32,000 nt of DNA from Thermococcus kodakarensis KOD1 (GCF_000009965.1 NC_006624.1:1-32000); one strand, 5' to 3'; shown: positions 1-24,834, numbered from the stretch's first letter. The notes: generated from the letters alone by a model not told the origin. Numbers and translations: made by a program.

Positions 1-3000
1 ATGATCCTCGACACTGACTACATAACCGAGGATGGAAAGCCTGTCATAAGAATTTTCAAGAAGGAAAACGGCGAGTTTAAGATTGAGTACGACCGGACTT
101 TTGAACCCTACTTCTACGCCCTCCTGAAGGACGATTCTGCCATTGAGGAAGTCAAGAAGATAACCGCCGAGAGGCACGGGACGGTTGTAACGGTTAAGCG
201 GGTTGAAAAGGTTCAGAAGAAGTTCCTCGGGAGACCAGTTGAGGTCTGGAAACTCTACTTTACTCATCCGCAGGACGTCCCAGCGATAAGGGACAAGATA
301 CGAGAGCATCCAGCAGTTATTGACATCTACGAGTACGACATACCCTTCGCCAAGCGCTACCTCATAGACAAGGGATTAGTGCCAATGGAAGGCGACGAGG
401 AGCTGAAAATGCTCGCCTTCGACATTGAAACTCTCTACCATGAGGGCGAGGAGTTCGCCGAGGGGCCAATCCTTATGATAAGCTACGCCGACGAGGAAGG
501 GGCCAGGGTGATAACTTGGAAGAACGTGGATCTCCCCTACGTTGACGTCGTCTCGACGGAGAGGGAGATGATAAAGCGCTTCCTCCGTGTTGTGAAGGAG
601 AAAGACCCGGACGTTCTCATAACCTACAACGGCGACAACTTCGACTTCGCCTATCTGAAAAAGCGCTGTGAAAAGCTCGGAATAAACTTCGCCCTCGGAA
701 GGGATGGAAGCGAGCCGAAGATTCAGAGGATGGGCGACAGGTTTGCCGTCGAAGTGAAGGGACGGATACACTTCGATCTCTATCCTGTGATAAGACGGAC
801 GATAAACCTGCCCACATACACGCTTGAGGCCGTTTATGAAGCCGTCTTCGGTCAGCCGAAGGAGAAGGTTTACGCTGAGGAAATAACCACAGCCTGGGAA
901 ACCGGCGAGAACCTTGAGAGAGTCGCCCGCTACTCGATGGAAGATGCGAAGGTCACATACGAGCTTGGGAAGGAGTTCCTTCCGATGGAGGCCCAGCTTT
1001 CTCGCTTAATCGGCCAGTCCCTCTGGGACGTCTCCCGCTCCAGCACTGGCAACCTCGTTGAGTGGTTCCTCCTCAGGAAGGCCTATGAGAGGAATGAGCT
1101 GGCCCCGAACAAGCCCGATGAAAAGGAGCTGGCCAGAAGACGGCAGAGCTATGAAGGAGGCTATGTAAAAGAGCCCGAGAGAGGGTTGTGGGAGAACATA
1201 GTGTACCTAGATTTTAGATGCCATCCAGCCGATACGAAGGTTGTCGTCAAGGGGAAGGGGATTATAAACATCAGCGAGGTTCAGGAAGGTGACTATGTCC
1301 TTGGGATTGACGGCTGGCAGAGAGTTAGAAAAGTATGGGAATACGACTACAAAGGGGAGCTTGTAAACATAAACGGGTTAAAGTGTACGCCCAATCATAA
1401 GCTTCCCGTTGTTACAAAGAACGAACGACAAACGAGAATAAGAGACAGTCTTGCTAAGTCTTTCCTTACTAAAAAAGTTAAGGGCAAGATAATAACCACT
1501 CCCCTTTTCTATGAAATAGGCAGAGCGACAAGTGAGAATATTCCAGAAGAAGAGGTTCTCAAGGGAGAGCTCGCTGGCATACTATTGGCTGAAGGAACGC
1601 TCTTGAGGAAAGACGTTGAATACTTTGATTCATCCCGCAAAAAACGGAGGATTTCACACCAGTATCGTGTTGAGATAACCATTGGGAAAGACGAGGAGGA
1701 GTTTAGGGATCGTATCACATACATTTTTGAGCGTTTGTTTGGGATTACTCCAAGCATCTCGGAGAAGAAAGGAACTAACGCAGTAACACTCAAAGTTGCG
1801 AAGAAGAATGTTTATCTTAAAGTCAAGGAAATTATGGACAACATAGAGTCCCTACATGCCCCCTCGGTTCTCAGGGGATTCTTCGAAGGCGACGGTTCAG
1901 TAAACAGGGTTAGGAGGAGTATTGTTGCAACCCAGGGTACAAAGAACGAGTGGAAGATTAAACTGGTGTCAAAACTGCTCTCCCAGCTTGGTATCCCTCA
2001 TCAAACGTACACGTATCAGTATCAGGAAAATGGGAAAGATCGGAGCAGGTATATACTGGAGATAACTGGAAAGGACGGATTGATACTGTTCCAAACACTC
2101 ATTGGATTCATCAGTGAAAGAAAGAACGCTCTGCTTAATAAGGCAATATCTCAGAGGGAAATGAACAACTTGGAAAACAATGGATTTTACAGGCTCAGTG
2201 AATTCAATGTCAGCACGGAATACTATGAGGGCAAGGTCTATGACTTAACTCTTGAAGGAACTCCCTACTACTTTGCCAATGGCATATTGACCCATAACTC
2301 CCTGTACCCCTCAATCATCATCACCCACAACGTCTCGCCGGATACGCTCAACAGAGAAGGATGCAAGGAATATGACGTTGCCCCACAGGTCGGCCACCGC
2401 TTCTGCAAGGACTTCCCAGGATTTATCCCGAGCCTGCTTGGAGACCTCCTAGAGGAGAGGCAGAAGATAAAGAAGAAGATGAAGGCCACGATTGACCCGA
2501 TCGAGAGGAAGCTCCTCGATTACAGGCAGAGGGCCATCAAGATCCTGGCAAACAGCATCCTACCCGAGGAATGGCTTCCAGTCCTCGAGGAAGGGGAGGT
2601 TCACTTCGTCAGGATTGGAGAGCTCATAGACCGGATGATGGAGGAAAATGCTGGGAAAGTAAAGAGAGAGGGCGAGACGGAAGTGCTTGAGGTCAGTGGG
2701 CTTGAAGTCCCGTCCTTTAACAGGAGAACTAAGAAGGCCGAGCTCAAGAGAGTAAAGGCCCTGATTAGGCACGATTATTCTGGCAAGGTCTACACCATCA
2801 GACTGAAGTCGGGGAGGAGAATAAAGATAACCTCTGGCCACAGCCTCTTCTCTGTGAGAAACGGGGAGCTCGTTGAAGTTACGGGCGATGAACTAAAGCC
2901 AGGTGACCTCGTTGCAGTCCCGCGGAGATTGGAGCTTCCTGAGAGAAACCACGTGCTGAACCTCGTTGAACTGCTCCTTGGAACGCCAGAAGAAGAAACT

Positions 3001-5016
3001 TTGGACATCGTCATGACGATCCCAGTCAAGGGTAAGAAGAACTTCTTTAAAGGGATGCTCAGGACTTTGCGCTGGATTTTCGGAGAGGAAAAGAGGCCCA
3101 GAACCGCGAGACGCTATCTCAGGCACCTTGAGGATCTGGGCTATGTCCGGCTTAAGAAGATCGGCTACGAAGTCCTCGACTGGGACTCACTTAAGAACTA
3201 CAGAAGGCTCTACGAGGCGCTTGTCGAGAACGTCAGATACAACGGCAACAAGAGGGAGTACCTCGTTGAATTCAATTCCATCCGGGATGCAGTTGGCATA
3301 ATGCCCCTAAAAGAGCTGAAGGAGTGGAAGATCGGCACGCTGAACGGCTTCAGAATGAGCCCGCTCATTGAAGTGGACGAGTCGTTAGCAAAGCTCCTCG
3401 GCTACTACGTGAGCGAGGGCTATGCAAGAAAGCAGAGGAATCCCAAAAACGGCTGGAGCTACAGCGTGAAGCTCTACAACGAAGACCCTGAAGTGCTGGA
3501 CGATATGGAGAGACTCGCCAGCAGGTTTTTCGGGAAGGTGAGGCGGGGCAGGAACTACGTTGAGATACCGAAGAAGATCGGCTACCTGCTCTTTGAGAAC
3601 ATGTGCGGTGTCCTAGCGGAGAACAAGAGGATTCCCGAGTTCGTCTTCACGTCCCCGAAAGGGGTTCGGCTGGCCTTCCTTGAGGGGTACTTCATCGGCG
3701 ATGGCGACGTCCACCCGAACAAGAGACTCAGGCTCTCAACGAAAAGCGAGCTTTTAGCGAACCAGCTCGTCCTCCTCTTGAACTCGGTGGGGGTCTCTGC
3801 TGTAAAACTTGGGCACGACAGCGGCGTTTACAGGGTCTATATAAACGAGGAGCTCCCGTTCGTAAAGCTGGACAAGAAAAAGAACGCCTACTACTCACAC
3901 GTGATCCCCAAGGAAGTCCTGAGCGAGGTCTTTGGGAAGGTTTTCCAGAAAAACGTCAGTCCTCAGACCTTCAGGAAGATGGTCGAGGACGGAAGACTCG
4001 ATCCCGAAAAGGCCCAGAGGCTCTCCTGGCTCATTGAGGGGGACGTAGTGCTCGACCGCGTTGAGTCCGTTGATGTGGAAGACTACGATGGTTATGTCTA
4101 TGACCTGAGCGTCGAGGACAACGAGAACTTCCTCGTTGGCTTTGGGTTGGTCTATGCTCACAACAGCTACTACGGTTACTACGGCTATGCAAGGGCGCGC
4201 TGGTACTGCAAGGAGTGTGCAGAGAGCGTAACGGCCTGGGGAAGGGAGTACATAACGATGACCATCAAGGAGATAGAGGAAAAGTACGGCTTTAAGGTAA
4301 TCTACAGCGACACCGACGGATTTTTTGCCACAATACCTGGAGCCGATGCTGAAACCGTCAAAAAGAAGGCTATGGAGTTCCTCAAGTATATCAACGCCAA
4401 ACTTCCGGGCGCGCTTGAGCTCGAGTACGAGGGCTTCTACAAACGCGGCTTCTTCGTCACGAAGAAGAAGTATGCGGTGATAGACGAGGAAGGCAAGATA
4501 ACAACGCGCGGACTTGAGATTGTGAGGCGTGACTGGAGCGAGATAGCGAAAGAGACGCAGGCGAGGGTTCTTGAAGCTTTGCTAAAGGACGGTGACGTCG
4601 AGAAGGCCGTGAGGATAGTCAAAGAAGTTACCGAAAAGCTGAGCAAGTACGAGGTTCCGCCGGAGAAGCTGGTGATCCACGAGCAGATAACGAGGGATTT
4701 AAAGGACTACAAGGCAACCGGTCCCCACGTTGCCGTTGCCAAGAGGTTGGCCGCGAGAGGAGTCAAAATACGCCCTGGAACGGTGATAAGCTACATCGTG
4801 CTCAAGGGCTCTGGGAGGATAGGCGACAGGGCGATACCGTTCGACGAGTTCGACCCGACGAAGCACAAGTACGACGCCGAGTACTACATTGAGAACCAGG
4901 TTCTCCCAGCCGTTGAGAGAATTCTGAGAGCCTTCGGTTACCGCAAGGAAGACCTGCGCTACCAGAAGACGAGACAGGTTGGTTTGAGTGCTTGGCTGAA
5001 GCCGAAGGGAACTTGA
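1..5016 (+). CDS. polB: Family B DNA polymerase precursor with two inteins (KOD-type Pol B)
   Basis: Exonuclease motif FDIETLY is present. Motif A is YLDFR|SLYPSII, split by intein 1. Motif B is KILAN|SYYGYYGY, split by intein 2. Motif C is YSDTDG. 1671 aa = 774-aa extein + 360 + 537 aa, the published layout of the Thermococcus kodakarensis KOD1 pol gene. Confidence 0.97.
1219..2298 (+). mobile_element. Intein 1 (360 aa) with LAGLIDADG homing endonuclease domain, inserted in polymerase motif A
   Basis: Begins with Cys (CHPADTKVV) directly after YLDFR and ends GILTHN before the +1 Ser of SLYPSIII. Block B-like TPNHKLPV is present. Two LAGLIDADG-type motifs: [11 protein letters not shown] and [11 protein letters not shown]. 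Codon boundaries were checked on the DNA (tgc at 1219, aac at 2296-2298). Confidence 0.95.
2554..4164 (+). mobile_element. Intein 2 (537 aa) with LAGLIDADG homing endonuclease domain, inserted in polymerase motif B
   Basis: Begins with Ser ([10 protein letters not shown]) after KILAN and ends LVYAHN before the +1 Ser of SYYGYYGY. Block B-like [10 protein letters not shown] is present. LAGLIDADG-type motifs: [11 protein letters not shown] and [12 protein letters not shown]. The element is 1611 nt = 537 codons. Confidence 0.95.
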
Positions 5017-14944: not shown

Positions 14945-15964
14945 ATGATAACATCTCTTCAGATTGAGAACTTCAGGGGCATAAAAAAGCTGAATCTGAG
15001 TAATCTTGGTCAGATTAATGTAATTGCGGGTAAAAACAACGCAGGCAAGTCGAGCGTGCTTGAGGCGTTATCTCTTTTCTTGGCGGCTTTTGGAGGAATT
15101 CAGTCAGTTAAGAGCGCTCTTCAAGAAATCCTGATATGGCGCGGATGGTATGGTTCTCAGGCTATAGAGGACTTATTTCATTCAAAGGCAGAACTTGCTA
15201 GGATTGTATCTACGAAGATAGATGCTTCATGGGAGCTTGTGCTAAAAAAGGAGATGTCCGGACTCAATGCATTGCCCACCCTTAAAGTTACGCTAAAACA
15301 GATCGATGAGGAGCATCCAAAGTTTAGTGCGGGATTTCAGATTCATAATCTAGTTGACAACAATGTATTGTCTATATCCCTGCTTTCATCAAAATTTGAC
15401 CCCAGTCTTAATTTTGAATTCATAACTCCTCTGACTCTCCGTAAGTTTGGATATGTTGAGAGCCTCTACTCCATTGGCTATGAGAGGAAGGTTGTAAAAG
15501 AAAGCATAAACATCCTTAACGAGGCTTATCCTGAGGTTGAGGGGTTTAGTCCCCTGTTCAAAGCAAATAAATGGATACTCCACGTCGAGACCAAATATGG
15601 TGTTTATCCATATTACTTAATGGGAGAAGGATTCAAAAACGCGATGATCATAGCGTTTCTGGCATCGCTTTTAAAGGGGGGATACCTTCTCATAGACTCC
15701 GCAGAGGCCTTCCATCACCCCAAGTCCCTGAGGGTCATGTCCAAGACCCTCGTTAAAGGGGCAAAGCAAAACGATGTCCAGGTGTTTTTAACCACCCACA
15801 GCATTGAGCTTATCGACATGCTAATCAAATATGGCTTAGAAAGCAAGGTTGATGGAAGGGTGATTTACATGAAGCGTGAGAACGGAAACGTAAAAGCCTC
15901 AATAGAAACCTTTGAAGAATCGCAAGAACTAAGGGAAACCCTGGGATTGGATCTGAGGGGATGA
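14945..15964 (+). CDS. AAA_21/AAA_15-type ABC ATPase (RecF/SMC-like N-terminus), OLD/AriA/PtuA-like
   Basis: N-terminus is IENFRGIKKLNLSNLGQINVIAGKNNAGKSSVLEAL (Walker A). LLIDSAEAFHHP occupies the Walker B position and FLTTHS the H-loop position. 339 aa. The first 100 nt contain 37 G+C by hand count. Confidence 0.8.
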   Translation: MITSLQIENFRGIKKLNLSNLGQINVIAGKNNAGKSSVLEALSLFLAAFGGIQSVKSALQEILIWRGWYGSQAIEDLFHSKAELARIVSTKIDASWELVLKKEMSGLNALPTLKVTLKQIDEEHPKFSAGFQIHNLVDNNVLSISLLSSKFDPSLNFEFITPLTLRKFGYVESLYSIGYERKVVKESINILNEAYPEVEGFSPLFKANKWILHVETKYGVYPYYLMGEGFKNAMIIAFLASLLKGGYLLIDSAEAFHHPKSLRVMSKTLVKGAKQNDVQVFLTTHSIELIDMLIKYGLESKVDGRVIYMKRENGNVKASIETFEESQELRETLGLDLRG

Positions 15965-15967
15965 AAC

Positions 15968-16699
15968 ATGGAGACTAGGCTTTTGCTTTTGGAAGGTCGG
16001 ACTGATGTTAGTTTCTTTCTTCCTTTGATAAAAGAGCTTTATGGATTCAAAGAGGCCAAATGTGAGGATCTTCCAGTTTTAGAAGAAGGTCCGAAAAAGA
16101 AAGGACTATCACGGGCAATCTGCCTGAGTAAAGATGATACTAGGTTGGTTGTGTGGCACGCCAACGGAAAGGACAATCTAAAAAACGCCCTTAAATTGAT
16201 TTTCAAAGCGATTGAGAGGCTTGAGGATACACCCGCCATCATCGGGATTGCGAGGGACGTTGATACCGAGGAGAGCATCTTAAACTGGGCTAAAAGCACT
16301 TTGCAGAGTGGGGGTTTTGAACCCGATGTAAAAGATGGATATCTCATGATAAACGGGATAAAGGTCATTCCATTTGGAATTGGGGAAGTTGATTTTGATG
16401 CAAGGGACATCGATCTAAAAAAAGAACTTGAACTCTTAATGGCTCTTCTAGCTAAGAAGGAAAGCAGCCTCTCAAAGCTAGAGGGTTCTATAAGTCAGCT
16501 CAGGAAAGACTTGGGGAGAAAGCTCACCCCAAAGGATATCATGCATCTCCTGGCAATCGCCCGGAACTATGGTGGAGACTCTATGTCGGGACTGTACCGA
16601 AACTTCATTGAGAAACTAATCAGGGAAAACAGGGAGCTCGTGGAGGAGTTTTTGAACGAGTCGGGATTGAAAGAATTCCTAAACGCTATTGCTCGGTGA
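15968..16699 (+). CDS. TOPRIM-like protein (DUF4435/OLD-TOPRIM-like), partner of the upstream ATPase
   Basis: Starts 3 nt after the ATPase stop. N-terminal [13 protein letters not shown] supplies the conserved Glu after strand 1, and [12 protein letters not shown] supplies DxD, matching TOPRIM spacing. 243 aa. The first 100 nt contain 40 G+C. The fold assignment is by motif only. Confidence 0.55.
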
Positions 16700-17697: not shown

Positions 17698-17752
17698 GGC
17701 TGGAAAAAACGTGTGGGTGGGCTTCAAGGCAAGTGCCGTCCACGTCTTTTAA
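17612..17752 (+). other. Out-of-frame (+1) remnant encoding the WtpC TOBE/Mop C-terminal domain
   Basis: The +1 frame reads [46 protein letters not shown]-stop (TAA at 17750-17752). This is the conserved C-terminus of ModC/WtpC-type ATPases. Confidence 0.8.
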
Positions 17753-17779
17753 AATTGAAAATTTGAAAACGCGGAAGAC

Positions 17780-18784
17780 TCATTCAATCTTGGCCCCACA
17801 GACCGGGCAGAACTTCGCTCCTTCAGGAACTATGTGGCCGTTCGGACAGCGTTTTATCTCGTGGCCGCAGTAGGGACAGAACCTCGCTCCAGGTGGAAGG
17901 GGCTTGCCGCAGTACGGGCATATCTCCTGCTGTTGGGCCTGCGGTTGGGCTTGTTGCTGTGCCGGCTGGTTCTGGTATCCTGCCGGAGGAACTCCACCTC
18001 CAGCATTGGGCTGGGCGGGCTGAGCCGGGGCCTGCGGCTGCATCAGCTGGGGAATGAGAACCATTCCTGTGCCAACCGAGGCGCTTCCGCTCTTTCCGAG
18101 TTCAGCAGCAACCTGCTTCGCGGTATCTAACTGCATTACAGCCTGGGCGTTGCCAGTCTGCATTATCCAGAAGAGCCTCTGCCTCCACTCGTCTGTCGTG
18201 TTCACGCCCTCTATCTTCACATCCACAAGTTCAAGGCCCAGCCTCCTGAAGTCCTCCATGAGCTTTACCTTGACCTGCGTGCTGACCATGTCGAGGTTCT
18301 GGAAGAGGTCAACGATGGAATAAGAACTGAGGTGCTTCATCATGCCCTCGTTGAAGTAAGCGCGGATGAACTTCGTAACGTCGCTCGTGTCGTAGAGGCT
18401 CTGGCCACCTACGACCTCCGTCAGGAACTGGACAGGATCAGCAACCTTGAACCAGTAGACACCGTAGTACTTTATGGGAGCGAGCTCTCTCGTCTGCGTC
18501 TCGCCTCCGTACCTTCCCTGGAACTCCTTGGTGCTGACGAAGATTACCGTCGCTTTAAAGGGGCTGTTGCTCCCGCCGACGAGTTTGTAAAGCAATGGAA
18601 GGTTCTGGGTCGTCAGCGTGTGCCTGCCCGGCCCGAAGACGTCATAGACCTTCCCGTCGCGCATGAAGACCGCAACTTCATACTCGTGGACTACCAGCTG
18701 GGCGCCCCACTTTATGACCTCGTTTGGGTACCTCCAGATTATCTCGTCCTCTCCTGGATTGACCCACTCAATAACCTGCACCAT
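17780..18784 (-). CDS. SPFH/band-7 family protein with C-terminal double zinc ribbon (YdjI/COG4260-like)
   Basis: The N-terminus VIEWVNPGEDEIIWRYP and a body of about 230 aa are typical of YdjI-type SPFH proteins. A Q/P/A-rich linker follows (PQAPAQPAQP...QPAQQQAQPQAQQQ), then CPYCG...CPYCG...CPNG...CPVCG. The ATG at 18784 follows GGGGTGAG. An alternative GTG start is at 18793. Confidence 0.75.
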   Translation of the reverse strand: MVQVIEWVNPGEDEIIWRYPNEVIKWGAQLVVHEYEVAVFMRDGKVYDVFGPGRHTLTTQNLPLLYKLVGGSNSPFKATVIFVSTKEFQGRYGGETQTRELAPIKYYGVYWFKVADPVQFLTEVVGGQSLYDTSDVTKFIRAYFNEGMMKHLSSYSIVDLFQNLDMVSTQVKVKLMEDFRRLGLELVDVKIEGVNTTDEWRQRLFWIMQTGNAQAVMQLDTAKQVAAELGKSGSASVGTGMVLIPQLMQPQAPAQPAQPNAGGGVPPAGYQNQPAQQQAQPQAQQQEICPYCGKPLPPGARFCPYCGHEIKRCPNGHIVPEGAKFCPVCGAKIE

Positions 18785-18785
18785 A

Positions 18786-19280
18786 TCACTCACCCCTCAG
18801 TATTGCGCTCCTTCCTTCGAGGACTTCCTCGAAGTTCCTCAGCATGTCATCGAGGGCGAAGACCTCCCCACCAAGTCTTTGAGGATCGGCAACGGCTCCG
18901 GAGATTGCGCCGGCCTTATCCCTGATCCCTTCGGCCAGCTCTATCATCTTCGCGTCGTACTCGATGAGCTTCTCAAGCTCCTTCTCCTTTATCTTCACCC
19001 TGTCAAAAAAGCCGGCGTAGCCTGCCTCGGCGTGCTTGACCTTCCCTTCGAGCATGATCAGCCTCTTCCTCATGTCCTCTATCGCCATGAGCATGTTGCA
19101 GTTCACCATTGCGCACCTCTGTAGGGCCCTTTCGAGCTCTCTCCTTGCCCCTGCGAGTATCTCTGCTACCTTTGCCCTCACAAGCCTGTCGTCCTCCCTC
19201 AGGAGCTCCTTCTTCTTGTAGCCGTGGAAGCCGGGAACGACGAGCTCAAGCTTTTCCCATATCGAAGTTTCCTTCCCCAT
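18786..19280 (-). CDS. Small all-helical/coiled-coil protein (164 aa), function unknown
   Basis: Strong GAGGTGG RBS. Charged heptad-like sequence (LLREDDRLVRAKVAEILAGARRELERAL, KIKEKELEKLIEYDAKMIELAEGIRDKA). Embedded in the SPFH operon. Confidence 0.6.
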   Translation of the reverse strand: MGKETSIWEKLELVVPGFHGYKKKELLREDDRLVRAKVAEILAGARRELERALQRCAMVNCNMLMAIEDMRKRLIMLEGKVKHAEAGYAGFFDRVKIKEKELEKLIEYDAKMIELAEGIRDKAGAISGAVADPQRLGGEVFALDDMLRNFEEVLEGRSAILRGE

Positions 19281-19289
19281 AATACCACC

Positions 19290-20183
19290 TCAAACGGGCA
19301 TGAAGTAGGTGTTGCCCTTCTTTATCCCCATAACTTCGCTAACAACCCTCTTGCTAACAGAGCCTTTTGAAAAGACTCCTGCGGCTCCGGCGCCTCCACC
19401 AACGAGGCCGCCGATGAGTCCCCAGACTGTTCCAGCGTAGGCCGACGCTATGATTCCGAGCACCGCCCCGGCACCGATAAGTCCGATGCCGAGGAGAGTA
19501 GTCCTCTTCCTGGCCTCGCTCATCAGCGGATACTCCGCTCTTATCACCCTTCCATCGGTCCCGTCAACGAAGTTGACGAAGCTCTGGCCATCGTACTCAT
19601 AGTGGACTTCCCAGACTGGGTAGTGCACAAGACCCTGGAAGACCACTTCAAGCTCGAACTCACCGGTTCTGGCGCTTTCCTCCCTCACCTCCTGCTGCAA
19701 CGCCGTCGTTATGTGGGAGCGGGCTATCTCCTCCGCCTTCTCCCTTGGCATCTCCGGCTCGTAGTACTTCCCCTTCTTCACTATGGCCTCGTCGAAGAAC
19801 TTCTTCCCCCTGACCGGGAACGGGTAGTTCATCAGGAGCGTTTTGAAGGGCGAACCTGCTGGAATCCCGAGAAAGCGGACTTCTTCAACGGTCTCCTTGT
19901 ACTTGTCCCTCCCGTGGAGGTAGAAGAAGTAGACCGGAACCCAGTGGAGCTCCTTCTTAGTTACCCTCGCGTCCACAATATCGGCAGGGGCACCGTACTG
20001 TCTTGAGAGGAACTTGAGGAGCTTTCCGGCGGGATCTTCCCTCATAGGCGAGAAGAAGAAGTGCTCCCCAACCTTCTCGCCGCTCTCGACCTTGAAGGTT
20101 GCCCCACAGTAGGGGCAGGTCGCGACCGTGACGGTGTCGGGAACCTTGAAAGTTGCCGAACAGACGGGGCAGGTTACCTCCAT
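19290..20183 (-). CDS. Zinc-ribbon membrane protein with C-terminal glycine-zipper TM region (paralogue of the upstream gene)
   Basis: N-terminal CPVCSATFKV...CPYCGATF. C-terminal LLGIGLIGAGAVLGIIASAYAGTVWGLIGGLVGGGAGAAGVF. The ATG at 20183 overlaps the upstream stop (TGATG) and follows GGGGTGAT. Confidence 0.7.
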   Translation of the reverse strand: MEVTCPVCSATFKVPDTVTVATCPYCGATFKVESGEKVGEHFFFSPMREDPAGKLLKFLSRQYGAPADIVDARVTKKELHWVPVYFFYLHGRDKYKETVEEVRFLGIPAGSPFKTLLMNYPFPVRGKKFFDEAIVKKGKYYEPEMPREKAEEIARSHITTALQQEVREESARTGEFELEVVFQGLVHYPVWEVHYEYDGQSFVNFVDGTDGRVIRAEYPLMSEARKRTTLLGIGLIGAGAVLGIIASAYAGTVWGLIGGLVGGGAGAAGVFSKGSVSKRVVSEVMGIKKGNTYFMPV

Positions 20184-21187
20184 CAAATCACCCCCAAGGA
20201 GCCTTCCCTTTCAACCCTCTGCCCTTCGAGGGCCTTACTGCCGGCGACCCAGCCGAGGGCAGCTCCACCAACCATCACCAGTATTCCGAAGACCGGCGAT
20301 GTTGAGACCAATGCCCCGCCGAAGGCCGCTATCAGCGCCCCGACCCCTGCCCCTGCCAGGTATTCGGCTCTTCTGAACAGGTTCATCGGCTCGGTGGCAG
20401 CGACTGCCTTTCCATCCCAGCCCGCGAAGACCGTCTGGAATATCGAGTTGCTGTACCTGTAGTAGATTGTCCACAGAGGAAGGAGGATGAGCCTGACGTT
20501 CTCCGGTTCTGATGCGTGTATATCAAACCGCTCTATCCTGTCGGATTTCGCTAAAAAGCGGTTCCTTATCACGTCCACGGCGTCTTCCCTCATCATGAGC
20601 TTCGCGTGGAGCTCATCCATCTCCGTGTTGAGGATTTCGAGCTTTATTTTGCTCCAGCTCTCCTCGTCGAGGTCAAGGAGTTTTTTCTCCTTCGGCCTGC
20701 TCTTTGAGAAGTGCTTTACCATATCTTCAACGCCGAGGCTCTTTACTTGCCTCCTGGCCGAGCCGAGGAGTGAAAGGTTCTCGTTCACCCTCTCCGTGTA
20801 GTGCCTCTCGACCGTGTGGCAGTGGGTATTTCCTTTGGAATCCGTGTGGCACTCCTGCTCGCGCTTCATGTACCTTACAGTTCCCTCAACGTGCACCTTT
20901 CCTGCCCAGTAGGGGGCGTAGTGCCCTTCTATCCCGACTATCTGGATGTCATCCTTTATCCTTCTCAGGTCGAAGTCCTTCTCGACCCTCTTCCAGAAGG
21001 ATTGGGCTATCGCGTTCTTGTCGAGGGAGGGGACGATGTAGATGTTCTCGGTCTTTATGTTGCCACTTATATGGTTCGGATAACCGCAGTAGGGACAGAC
21101 CGCGATTATCGTTTCGGGAGAAACCTCAAGCGGCGCCCCACAGCGCTCACACCTAAAAGTGAACTCCTCCATGTTGACCACTCTCAT
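20183..21187 (-). CDS. Zinc-ribbon membrane protein with C-terminal glycine-rich TM region (YdjG-like architecture)
   Basis: N-terminal FRCERCGAPLEV...CPYCGYPN. C-terminal LAGAGVGALIAAFGGALVSTSPVFGILVMVGGAALGWVAG. The start is ATG at 21187 or 21172. Confidence 0.7.
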   Translation of the reverse strand: MRVVNMEEFTFRCERCGAPLEVSPETIIAVCPYCGYPNHISGNIKTENIYIVPSLDKNAIAQSFWKRVEKDFDLRRIKDDIQIVGIEGHYAPYWAGKVHVEGTVRYMKREQECHTDSKGNTHCHTVERHYTERVNENLSLLGSARRQVKSLGVEDMVKHFSKSRPKEKKLLDLDEESWSKIKLEILNTEMDELHAKLMMREDAVDVIRNRFLAKSDRIERFDIHASEPENVRLILLPLWTIYYRYSNSIFQTVFAGWDGKAVAATEPMNLFRRAEYLAGAGVGALIAAFGGALVSTSPVFGILVMVGGAALGWVAGSKALEGQRVEREGSLGVI

Positions 21188-21265
21188 AGTTAGTAAAGGA
21201 CTTTAGAGTTTTTAAGGATATTTTAAAAGAAAAACCGAGGCGTTATGACGACTGTTAAACTCCCA

Positions 21266-22596: not shown

Positions 22597-23862
22597 TCAG
22601 GTGCCGTGCTCCCAGCTTTCCAGATATTTCTTTTGCTCTTCTGTGAGTTCCTCAATTTTTATCCCCATCGAGGCGAGCTTTATCCTCGCCACCATCTCGT
22701 CTATCTCCCTCGGAAGAACGTAGACCTTCGGCTCAAGCCTTCCGCGGTTCTCCTTGATGTACTCAGCGGCTTTCGCCTGGAGCGCGAAGCTCATGTCCAT
22801 TATCTCCGCTGGATGACCGTCGGCAGCGGCTAGATTCACAAGCCTGCCCTCAGCCAGGAGGTAGAGCCTCCTCCCGTCTGCCATTTTGTACTCTGTGATG
22901 TTCGGCCTTGGCTCGCTTATCTCAACTGCGAGGGCCTCAAGGTCAGGCTTTGAAATCTCGACATCGAAGTGGCCGGCGTTGGCGAGAATAGCTCCGTCCT
23001 TCATGAGCTCGAAGTGCTCCTTCCTTATGCAGTTGATGTCTCCGGTGGCAGTTATGAAGATGTCCCCTACCTTCGCCGCCTCCATCATGTCCATGACGAG
23101 GAATCCGTCCATTCTGGCTTCTAGAGCCCTTATTGGGTCAACCTCAACGACGATAACGGTCGCTCCAAGTCCCCTCGCGCGCATTGCTATGCCCCTGCCG
23201 CACCAGCCATAGCCGACAACAACGACGTTCTTTCCAGCGACGAGGAGGTTAGTAGTCCTTATGATGCCGTCCCAGGTGGACTGACCGGTTCCATAGCGGT
23301 TGTCGAAGAGGTATTTGGTGTAGGAATCGTTGACCGCTATGATCGGGAACTTGAGGACGCCATCCTTCTCCATGGCACGGAGCCTTATGACGCCGGTTGT
23401 GGTTTCCTCGCTTGCCCCCCATATTTCGGGAATCAGCTCCTGCCTCTCCTTCAAAACCGTGCTCACCATATCCGCTCCGTCGTCTATGATGATGTTCGGT
23501 TTTACGTCGAGGGCCTTGTGCATGAACTCGTAGTACTGCTCCCTGTCCTCTCCCCTTATAGCGTAGACCTTGACCCCCGCCTTTGCCAGAGCGGCAACTA
23601 CATCGTCCTGGGTGGAGAGTGGGTTGCTGGCAGCTGCCGAAACCTCGGCTCCAGCCGCTTTCAGCGTCAGAAGCAGAAAGGCAGTCTTCATCTCAAGGTG
23701 TAGAGTCGCTGCTATCCTAACGCCCTTAAACGGTTTCCTCTCTTCAAAGTCCTTCCTGATGTGCTGGAGAACCGGCATGAAGCGGGAGACCCAGTCTATC
23801 TTCTTCTCCCCGCTCGGTGCCAGGGAGATGTCCTTAACGCAGTAATCCTTCGTGCAGTCCAT
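22597..23862 (-). CDS. ahcY: S-adenosyl-L-homocysteine hydrolase
   Basis: 421 aa from [15 protein letters not shown]. Motifs HLEMKTA, NAD site [12 protein letters not shown], and [12 protein letters not shown] are present. The 532-aa track ORF is an upstream over-extension. Confidence 0.93.
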
Positions 23863-23955
23863 AAACTTCACCGCCCTTAACTCAACGGAGGAGCTTAAAA
23901 GCCTCTCCCCGGGAAGGTTTATCTGCTTTGAAAACAATCCCCTTTGGTGAAAACG

Positions 23956-24834
23956 ATGGGAGTTAGAAAGCTCGGAGACAGCGCTTACCTCTACCCAGGA
24001 AGTCCCTCGACTCTTATTCGGATTCATGAGGGAAATGCCGTCCTCGTTGATCCCGGCCACGGAAGCGGGAGGCACAAGGACCTGAGGAGGGAAGTCGGGA
24101 AGCTCGGACTTGAGGTAAATCTCCAGCTCGCAACCCACGGGCACGCCGACCACGTCTCGGTATGTCCAAAGATCGACGCTCCCCTCCTCACCCATCGCTT
24201 TGAGTTCTCAATAGCTGAAAGCCCTCTCAACAGGGAGATTCTGACATTTGGCTCAAAGGCTCCAGAGGGGTTTCTGGCCTATGCTTTTCCGGAGGAAGTA
24301 AAAGTTCACGGAGTTTTTGAGTGGGGCGATGAAATAGCCGGCTTAAAGGCAGTTCAGCTCAACGGCCACTCCCCTGGCATGACGGGCTTTTTAGATGAGG
24401 AGAACGGCTTAATTTACGCTGGGGACTCCTTCTTCGGCGAGAGGCTCCTCCAGTCGGTTGGCCTGCCGTACCTCGTGGATGTTGGACTTTTCTGGAAGTC
24501 CCTTGAGACTCTGCGAGAGTATGCAGGCTCAGGCTACCTCCTGATACCATCCCACGGAAAATCAGTCTCGGGTGAAGAAGCCATTGAAACTCTCGAATTC
24601 AATATCAAACGAGTCGAAGACTCTGAGAAGCTTGCCTTGGAGTTCCTCAGAGAACCTCTGACAGTTGACGAGCTTGCTTTCAGGATCATGCGCGCTTTGG
24701 GCGTTGAGCTTACTCCCAAGAAGCTTGCCCTGAACCTTGTGCCTGTGAGGGCCCTAATAGCAGAACTCTACAACAGGGGAGAACTTGAAGCGGTCGTTGA
24801 GAACGGCCTCAAATGGGTTCGGCGGAAGGAATAG
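23956..24834 (+). CDS. Metallo-beta-lactamase fold hydrolase
   Basis: HxHxDH motif (ATHGHADHV) after VLVDPGHG, with a later GHSPG. The likely start is the ATG at 23956 after GGTGA. Confidence 0.8.

Follow-up and report, generated by a model that had tools for sequence, protein, structure and literature searches.

The closest described counterparts of the locus treated here are found in Bacillus, where the SPFH protein YdjI (SamI) is encoded together with PspA, YdjG (SamG) and YdjH (SamH). YdjG carries zinc ribbons, a YpeB-related NTF2-like domain and a transmembrane (TM) segment, and the ydjFGHI arrangement has been described as a coupling, in Firmicutes, of PspA to Band-7 proteins (Ravi et al. 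2024, PMC11237479); reviews still regard the roles of the Band-7 partners of PspA as undetermined. YdjG and YdjH are both needed for membrane foci of YdjI, which is itself needed for PspA foci, and in two-hybrid assays it is YdjH, not YdjG, that binds YdjI and PspA directly (PMC8581546). SamI is a higher-order oligomer that restrains a SamG-SamH sensor, a role for which PspA is dispensable; its loss results in constitutive SamGH-dependent signalling and a global transcriptional change, independently of PspA (preprint 10.64898/2026.02.06.704340). Here we analyse a stretch of 32,000 nucleotides (nt) from Thermococcus kodakarensis KOD1 (NC_006624.1:1-32000, hereafter the window), in which four adjacent genes, TK0025 to TK0022, encode relatives of YdjG and YdjI together with a small helical protein. 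We refer to these genes as A, B, C and D, in the order of transcription.

What do the archaeal relatives of YdjI do, and with which partners? TK0022, the SPFH gene, is the named representative of arCOG01917, a family present in 392/524 archaeal genomes, assigned to the archaeal ancestor and listed as a top-priority 'dark matter' unknown (Makarova, Wolf and Koonin 2019, PMC6393860). In that listing the family is annotated merely as 'Zn ribbon domain-containing protein', no linked genes are noted, and neither the C partner nor the YdjG-like anchors are mentioned (PMC6393860). Our reading, to which we assign a probability of roughly 0.6, is that TK0025-TK0022 constitute a single-promoter operon whose products assemble, at the cytoplasmic side of the membrane, into an SPFH complex of the SamG/SamI type. 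Across genomes the conserved unit is the pair of C and the SPFH gene with interchangeable membrane anchors, not the four-gene block.

Gene content and transcription of the operon

A scan for open reading frames (ORFs) finds four on the minus strand that fill positions 17780-21187. Window coordinates equal NC_006624.1 genome coordinates, gene coordinates were taken from the supplementary gene table of PMC4247193, and protein identities from exact-sequence matches to KOD1 proteins.

20183-21172, minus strand: gene A, TK0025 (BAD84214), 329 residues, YdjG/SamG homologue
19290-20183, minus strand: gene B, TK0024 (BAD84213), 297 residues, YdjG-like paralogue of A
18786-19280, minus strand: gene C, TK0023 (BAD84212), 164 residues, modelled as a soluble four-helix bundle
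17780-18784, minus strand: gene D, TK0022 (BAD84211), 334 residues, soluble SPFH protein of the YdjI/SamI type, arCOG01917 representative

A and B overlap in a TGATG (stop at 20185-20183, ATG at 20183-20181). The stop of B, which is spanned by TGAGGTGG, is followed by the 9-nt spacer GGTGGTATT (19289-19281) before C, and between the stop of C and the ATG of D (18784) there is a single nucleotide (18785). A Shine-Dalgarno-like, GGTG-containing motif lies 3-8 nt 5' of the ATG in B, C and D alike. A preliminary description of the locus, made from its sequence, had reported the four minus-strand genes with these junctions, and direct reading of the sequence bears this out. Its sizes stand in part: 164 residues are correct for C, whereas 298 residues for B and 337 for D derive from upstream TTG or GTG codons that clash with the junctions reported in the same description.

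Transcription from one promoter is supported experimentally. In the differential RNA sequencing (dRNA-seq) data of PMC4247193, a primary transcription start site (TSS) assigned to TK0025 lies at 21185 on the minus strand, and the position-sorted list shows no other TSS, whatever its class, between 16211 and 21184. Since there is a single primary TSS and none inside the block, the data back co-transcription of TK0025-TK0022, which had been proposed to form a translationally coupled operon. Reads cover all four genes in all five dRNA-seq libraries, with the highest counts on TK0025, the 5' gene. The putative transcription signals on either side of the block are as follows.

21209-21215, minus strand: TATA-like element TTAAAAA, read from the sequence, a candidate promoter element
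17746-17770, minus strand: T-rich tract TTTTcaaaTTTTcaaTTTTaaaa, read from the sequence, directly 3' of the stop of D

TTAAAAA lies 24-30 nt upstream of the TSS (centre about 27 nt) and is preceded by an A-rich stretch resembling a B recognition element; the T-rich tract is a probable archaeal terminator, facing the convergent TK0021.

Where does A begin? The TSS at 21185 coincides with the G of an ATG that begins at 21187. Because the TSS falls within this upstream ATG, and because the orthologues and the original BAD84214 annotation agree, A most likely starts at 21172 (329 residues) and not at 21187 (334 residues). The RefSeq re-annotation of TK0025 (WP_232500583; 334 residues, ATG 21187) conflicts with the TSS. 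The boundary of 21187 proposed earlier, giving 334 residues, is about 15 nt too far for the coding sequence of A, yet coincides with the start of the transcript. In a 2025 interactome study (PMC12016516) mass spectrometry detected the TK0022 and TK0025 proteins, and one bait enriched both; this shows that they are made and is weak evidence that they associate.

Predicted products of genes D, A and B

D divides into an SPFH domain, a linker and a double zinc ribbon.

18173-18739, minus strand: SPFH domain of D, Pfam match to Band_7_1 (PF13421)
17924-18061, minus strand: low-complexity linker of D rich in Q, P and A, read from the sequence
17795-17920, minus strand: double zinc ribbon of D, Pfam DZR (PF12773)

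The match to Band_7_1 (E 1.8e-34; 119.7 bits against a gathering cutoff of 24) aligns residues 19-207 with positions 1-203 of the 211 in the profile. The zinc-ribbon knuckles read CPYCG, CPYCG, CPNGH and CPVCG, the first knuckle of the second ribbon being CPNGH in Thermococcales and CPxCG elsewhere. As Bacillus reference we used loci fetched with the ydjG primer sequence of PMC8581546, of which L002 (B. stercoris) gave PspA, YdjG, YdjH and YdjI. D aligns with YdjI over its full length and in the same architecture (BLASTP 3e-26; family hidden Markov model, HMM, 4.5e-26); judged by sequence, it is a true full-length homologue of YdjI/SamI, as had been proposed. Compared with PDB sequences, D has no relatives and no detectable similarity to any solved structure. 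A sequence scan finds no hydrophobic segment in D or in C, which marks both as soluble.

A and B, in turn, each combine an N-terminal CxxC...CxxC ribbon with a Gly-zipper hydrophobic span of about 45 residues.

21071-21160, minus strand: zinc ribbon of A, with C13, C16, C31 and C34 (334-residue numbering)
20228-20380, minus strand: predicted Gly-zipper TM hairpin of A, helices 270-293 and 298-320 of the AlphaFold2 model
19371-19505, minus strand: predicted Gly-zipper TM hairpin of B, residues 227-271, with GxxxG at 239, 251, 255, 258, 259 and 262

All four ribbon cysteines of A are invariant in 27 A homologues, and GxxxG runs occur in the hairpins of both proteins. The AlphaFold2 model of A (predicted local distance difference test score, pLDDT, 88) consists of the zinc ribbon, two alpha+beta modules of helix plus antiparallel sheet, and a C-terminal two-helix TM hairpin; Foldseek comparison of the full model with the PDB yields no meaningful match (template-modelling scores of about 0.1), probably owing to the several domains of the model. 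B matches PepSY (PF03413) weakly, below the cutoff (E 0.017), and we label this region PepSY/NTF2-like. The layout of the A model and the weak PepSY match of B agree with the description of YdjG cited above (PMC11237479). The C-terminal tail of B is basic, and since basic residues lie on both sides of the hairpins of A and B, both hairpin ends, and hence all soluble parts of the two proteins, should be cytoplasmic.

A and YdjG are colinear over about 290 residues (BLASTP 9e-10; family HMM 2.7e-17) and have in common an 'LLPxW..Y.Y' strand region before the Gly-rich TM segment. B is more distant from YdjG (BLASTP 4e-4; family HMM 1.5e-4) and matches A over its full length (1e-8). By these comparisons A is a colinear YdjG/SamG homologue and B its paralogue, so the earlier suggestion of a duplicated YdjG-like component stands, as does the overall domain content then given (zinc-ribbon/Gly-zipper A and B, helical C, and D with SPFH domain, Q/P linker and double ribbon).

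Within the genus, the A/B orthologues of Thermococcus stetteri and Thermococcus sp. JCM 11816 were seen as fragments of 133-181 residues in 90%-identity clusters, one of them mislabelled 'ribosomal protein L37E'. C is intact in T. stetteri, and the D cluster, with three members, includes neither T. stetteri nor JCM 11816. The fragments could reflect frameshifts, pseudogenisation of the anchor genes or assembly errors.

Gene C and its pairing with the SPFH gene

A metagenome scan was queried with the alignment of C, and the best 80 loci were analysed with HMMs built from the window and from the first contexts. In 74/80 loci the gene that directly follows C encodes an SPFH protein of the YdjI type. 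The remaining six comprise one locus with an A-like gene inserted between C and D and five contigs that stop at C or shortly beyond it; none of these 80 C-anchored loci is a clean counter-example to C-SPFH adjacency. From the stop of C to the start of D the median distance is 2 nt, and 68/75 distances are at most 15 nt or overlapping. All eight distinct annotated contexts (L005, L006/L007, L008/L009, L010/L011, L012 and L098-L100) contain the pair, among them that of an Anaerolineae bacterium; it ranges from Thermococcales to Nitrososphaerota, plus Anaerolineae bacteria. It is this constant, tight adjacency, with YdjG-like genes missing from about half of the loci, that identifies the C-SPFH pair as the conserved core.

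The full order A-B-C-D also occurs in Palaeococcus (A 65% and B 67% identical), in the distant lineages L010 and L012, and in hydrothermal metagenomes. Its recurrence in Palaeococcus and in far more distant lineages, together with the lack of an internal TSS, places the four-gene arrangement beyond chance. The block proposed earlier is thus a real arrangement that Palaeococcus has in common with T. kodakarensis, but it is not the unit that is conserved. A-then-B pairs recur in Palaeococcus, L010, L012 and L014-L026, and two hydrothermal metagenome loci have the order C-D-A-B. Elsewhere the membrane partner may be a single B-like gene of about 250 residues, a multi-TM protein of about 100 residues ('S') or a YccF-like protein, or none is recognisable. 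The soil-type loci with C and D only are archaeal, and their neighbours are Csl4, RpoL, TFS and PCNA, all of them unrelated housekeeping genes. A secreted helical protein of 369 residues upstream in a Nezhaarchaeota locus was considered as a YdjG analogue and rejected.

Several individual loci illustrate this variety. On a hydrothermal contig (L023:3-5724) three tandem YdjG-like A/B pairs (B-A-B-A-B) stand directly upstream of C-D, an expansion of the anchor genes. In an Anaerolineae metagenome-assembled genome (L098:939-5117), a DUF2207 membrane protein of 635 residues with a long poly-Gly tail is followed by a 172-residue protein with two TM segments and a C-terminal zinc ribbon, by C, and by an SPFH gene with DZR; the Gly-rich C-termini at this locus recall those of Bacillus YdjG and YdjH. 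At L099:6473-8727 and L100:3751-6009 a YccF-like membrane protein of 142 residues precedes C and an SPFH protein in which HTH_17 (PF12728) replaces the zinc ribbons. The C-terminal module of D is, this suggests, an exchangeable binding domain, possibly a nucleic-acid-binding one.

What kind of protein is C? Its model (pLDDT 85; predicted template-modelling score 0.81) is a compact four-helix bundle with helices at 24-58, 64-82, 99-129 and 133-162.

19176-19256, minus strand: conserved N-terminal motif of C, E9...PGFHGYKKKELLREDDRLVR, residues 9-35, invariant alignment columns
18984-19031, minus strand: second conserved motif of C, AEAGYAGFFDRVKIKE, residues 84-99, in the modelled loop between helices 2 and 3

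In an alignment of 33 homologues the motifs PGFHGYKxKELxRExDRLVR and AGYAGxFDxVKxxE are strongly conserved and non-helical, and R157 is invariant; the invariant residues cluster in these two Gly/aromatic motifs beside helix ends. The secondary-structure topology of the model would place both motifs at the same pole of the up-down bundle, and their conservation suggests that they form a site for specific binding rather than part of a polymer lattice.

Could C nevertheless stand in for PspA? In such an archaeal repair module of the Psp kind, C would be a polymerising membrane remodeller recruited to damage by the SPFH protein, and possibly vesicle-forming. Like PspA, which is a strong YdjI binder in Bacillus (PMC8581546), C is a soluble helical partner encoded beside an SPFH gene; one member of its family is fused to DUF4178, a component of PspA-CesT/Tir polyamine operons (PMC11237479); and SPFH proteins have been suggested as universal factors associated with extracellular vesicles (PMC6524685). 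The preliminary description had put C 'in the PspA position', a placement that does not survive comparison: no Pfam family matches C, with neither PspA_IM30 nor Snf7 at E<=1; BLASTP against Bacillus PspA gives E 5 and the C-family HMM E 54, that is, no similarity; and in gene order C occupies the slot of ydjH. Foldseek against the PDB returns generic four-helix bundles (best E 0.03), with PspA, Vipp1 and ESCRT-III absent from the top 50, and a C profile against PDB sequences finds coiled-coil noise and no relatives. Judged by sequence and model, C is not PspA-like, and its compact bundle of 164 residues departs from the long alpha1-alpha2/3 hairpin of the ESCRT-III fold. The two loop motifs point to a binding site, and none of the eight distinct annotated neighbourhoods contains a PspA gene. 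We therefore consider a PspA-like role of C unlikely. The accompanying statement that Thermococcales lack Cdv/ESCRT was too strong, as some of them have Vps4 with ESCRT-III and others a solo Vps4 (PMC11188069).

The C family is large. In an exhaustive profile search 1,761 cluster representatives score E <= 1e-3, of which 1,038 reach E <= 1e-10; named members include those of Thermococcus, Palaeococcus, Pyrobaculum, Nitrososphaerota, Thermoprotei, Infirmifilum, Nezhaarchaeota and one Anaerolineae bacterium. Matches to NCBIfam NF047596 (LIMLP_15305, Leptospira) were obtained for 28/33 members, the best at E 9.6e-17 and all below the equivalog cutoff; TK0023 itself scores 22.8 bits against a cutoff of 210, with residues 27-160 aligned to positions 37-172 of the 175 in the profile. 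On this sequence evidence C is homologous to the LIMLP_15305 family but outside its equivalog. A literature search on the neighbourhood of LIMLP_15305 in Leptospira returned a mention in a table of small RNAs only. A PF25443 'ANG-1' label on the C homologue P0088 was dismissed, being below threshold and absent from other members. Searches of the literature turned up neither an account of the C family nor one of the C-SPFH pair and, in agreement with the preliminary description, no functional study of such a module in archaea.

A more far-reaching idea concerns the pair as a whole. The C-SPFH pair might be an ancient two-protein membrane system common to archaea and bacteria, with the Firmicute pspA-samGHI operon having branched off late and exchanged C for PspA and SamH. 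In that case C might supply in trans the helical wall or lid that HflK/C, stomatin and flotillin form from fused coiled coils, or be an SPFH-gated effector of new fold. We offer this tentatively and hold it to be rather unlikely; if true, it would provide a new assembly principle for SPFH cages and a function for one of the most widespread uncharacterised archaeal families.

Fusions within the C family include an N-terminal zinc ribbon with a low-complexity linker, an N-terminal TM segment, acidic tails and, in the one case mentioned, a C-terminal DUF4178. Do such additions point to signalling? D might restrain C, or A/B, until membrane perturbation frees a cytoplasmic output, as with SamI/SamGH or PspA/PspF. 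The constitutive signalling that follows SamI loss speaks for this, and the HTH_17 that takes the place of the D ribbons in some bacterial loci, like the zinc ribbon carried by some C proteins, could be a modular output domain that binds nucleic acid or a partner protein. No transcription factor, kinase or recognised output component is found among the operon proteins, however, and zinc ribbons and HTH_17 may be mere protein-protein or anchoring modules. As the primary function this appears rather unlikely; as a 'brake' it is plausible and compatible with the SPFH complex that we favour.

For that SPFH complex we infer the following function. A and B would form a heteromeric membrane anchor, as suggested by their conservation as an adjacent pair in the order A-then-B. 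Their cytoplasmic zinc-ribbon and putative NTF2/PepSY-like domains would dock an oligomeric scaffold of D at the inner face of the membrane, and C would bind D as an obligate adaptor or regulator through the composite surface formed by its two invariant motifs. By analogy with SamGHI, the assembly would most likely monitor or stabilise the membrane under stress, the SPFH oligomer holding its membrane partners in check. It would do so without an operon-encoded PspA and without an extracytoplasmic domain of the SamH type.

Several points weigh against this proposal. Docking of D by A and B is an extrapolation from Bacillus, since the YdjI partner there is YdjH, which has no homologue here. The C-D contact and the placing of both C motifs at one pole draw on gene adjacency and predicted secondary-structure topology. 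The change in dRNA-seq signal between the two conditions compared is not significant (adjusted P 1). And A/B are evidently not universally required, for about half of the well-flanked C-D loci have no YdjG-like gene nearby: among 22 loci with adequate flanks, 11 carry A/B-like genes, one carries S alone and 10 carry neither.

Genomic setting and comparison with known systems

On the plus strand at 14945-16699, TK0019 and TK0020 encode an AAA_15/AAA_21 ATPase of 339 residues and a DUF3226 protein of 243 residues, matching PADLOC PDC-M38A/B at 2.6e-39 and 5.6e-5 and AbiLi at 7e-36. Their G+C content is 0.43-0.46, compared with about 0.52 nearby, and they are flanked by the ABC permease TK0018 and the ABC ATPase TK0021; they look like a defence pair whose insertion has interrupted a transporter cluster. 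Might TK0025-TK0022 likewise be a mobile or defence cassette, an SPFH-based abortive-infection or conflict system? The PDC-M38/AbiLi-like pair lies only 1-3 kb away, and proteins of COG4260 were in the past mislabelled 'virion core protein'. PADLOC, however, matches none of the four (0/4), and their PHROG matches cover zinc ribbons only. A scan of viral contigs with the D alignment likewise hit only zinc-ribbon stretches, and against viral structures the C model retrieves generic helical bundles (best E 0.07) and no relatives. The G+C content of the four-gene region, 0.56, is at the genome level or slightly above. The wide distribution of arCOG01917, its assignment to the archaeal ancestor and the housekeeping contexts of related loci argue in the same direction. 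A defence or mobile origin is largely refuted and, in our estimate, highly improbable.

Two further genes of the window deserve a remark. A mechanical ORF of 532 residues at 22597-24195 (minus strand) over-extends the S-adenosylhomocysteine hydrolase gene TK0028, which is annotated at 22597-23862 with a TSS at 23872; within the long ORF the AdoHcyase domain begins only at residue 117. At the start of the window lies the ORF of TK0001 (1-5016, plus strand; 1,671 residues), which we take to be the intein-containing family B (KOD) DNA polymerase and which marks the window as the first 32 kb of the KOD1 chromosome.

What is gained by this assignment? A family present in about three quarters of sequenced archaea, arCOG01917, acquires a concrete context: a bacterial homologue with genetics, in SamG/SamI, and a constant partner, C, whose family was previously unnoticed and has no Pfam model for its 1,761 cluster representatives. 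The SPFH-partner core proves separable from PspA. T. kodakarensis is genetically tractable, and with a single mapped promoter and products detectable by mass spectrometry the hypotheses can be tested directly. Should the module influence vesicle budding or the integrity of the membrane, it would be relevant to membrane management in archaea without canonical Cdv.

HflK/C-FtsH, QmcA-YbbJ/NfeD, stomatin and flotillin belong to the same SPFH fold family and are expected to form higher-order membrane oligomers that organise partner proteins. Canonical cages have their own membrane anchor and long C-terminal coiled coils forming the wall and lid; D has neither, and the T. kodakarensis locus contains no protease or NfeD partner. 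Another protein to compare is the archaeal SPFH-coiled-coil-zinc-ribbon protein of the 'Meth_adaptin' ESCRT loci of Methanobacteriales, which has been discussed together with YdjI and ESCRT-III/PspA (Makarova et al. 2024, PMC11188069). It resembles D as an archaeal SPFH protein with a zinc ribbon; its genes, however, sit in Vps4/ESCRT-III/adaptin loci, whereas TK0022-25 have no ESCRT component nearby and D has no long coiled coil. Neither Popp et al. 2022 nor a review of ESCRT-III from 2025 covers this module or Thermococcales, and the former omits SPFH proteins.

The Bacillus pspA-ydjGHI operon remains the nearest relative. Both systems are single operons. Each encodes a soluble SPFH protein in which Band_7_1 is followed by a low-complexity linker and a C-terminal zinc ribbon (YdjI/SamI, resembling D), and a zinc-ribbon protein with C-terminal TM segment (YdjG/SamG, resembling A and B), whose NTF2/YpeB-like domain may have a counterpart in A and B. 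In detail they diverge. YdjG has two zinc ribbons and a single tail anchor, whereas A and B have one ribbon each and a two-helix hairpin; the YdjG-like component is single in Bacillus and duplicated here; and the gene order is G-G'-C-I in T. kodakarensis versus pspA-G-H-I. Bacillus has an extracytoplasmic domain, in YdjH, and the T. kodakarensis system is predicted to have none. In the earlier summary of the Bacillus system YdjG had been named as the partner with which YdjI recruits PspA; YdjG does contribute to the foci, but the direct binding falls to YdjH.

The T. kodakarensis locus lacks both PspA and the TPM-domain protein YdjH/SamH. Searching the 32-kb window with Bacillus PspA by phmmer finds nothing, and no PspA_IM30 or Snf7 match occurs in any of the four proteins. 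The same holds for YdjH: the four proteins have no TPM Pfam match, no family HMM matches YdjH, and phmmer with YdjH is empty over the window. Of the four sequence-testable features that define the SamGHI-PspA module, two (the YdjI-type SPFH protein and the YdjG-type protein) are present and two (YdjH and PspA) are absent, and TK0025-TK0022 should for this reason not be filed as a Psp/SamGHI system. C, for its part, is a conserved soluble protein of the archaeal locus that Bacillus does not possess, and the locus is better described as an SPFH module of the SamG/SamI type that includes a new constant component.

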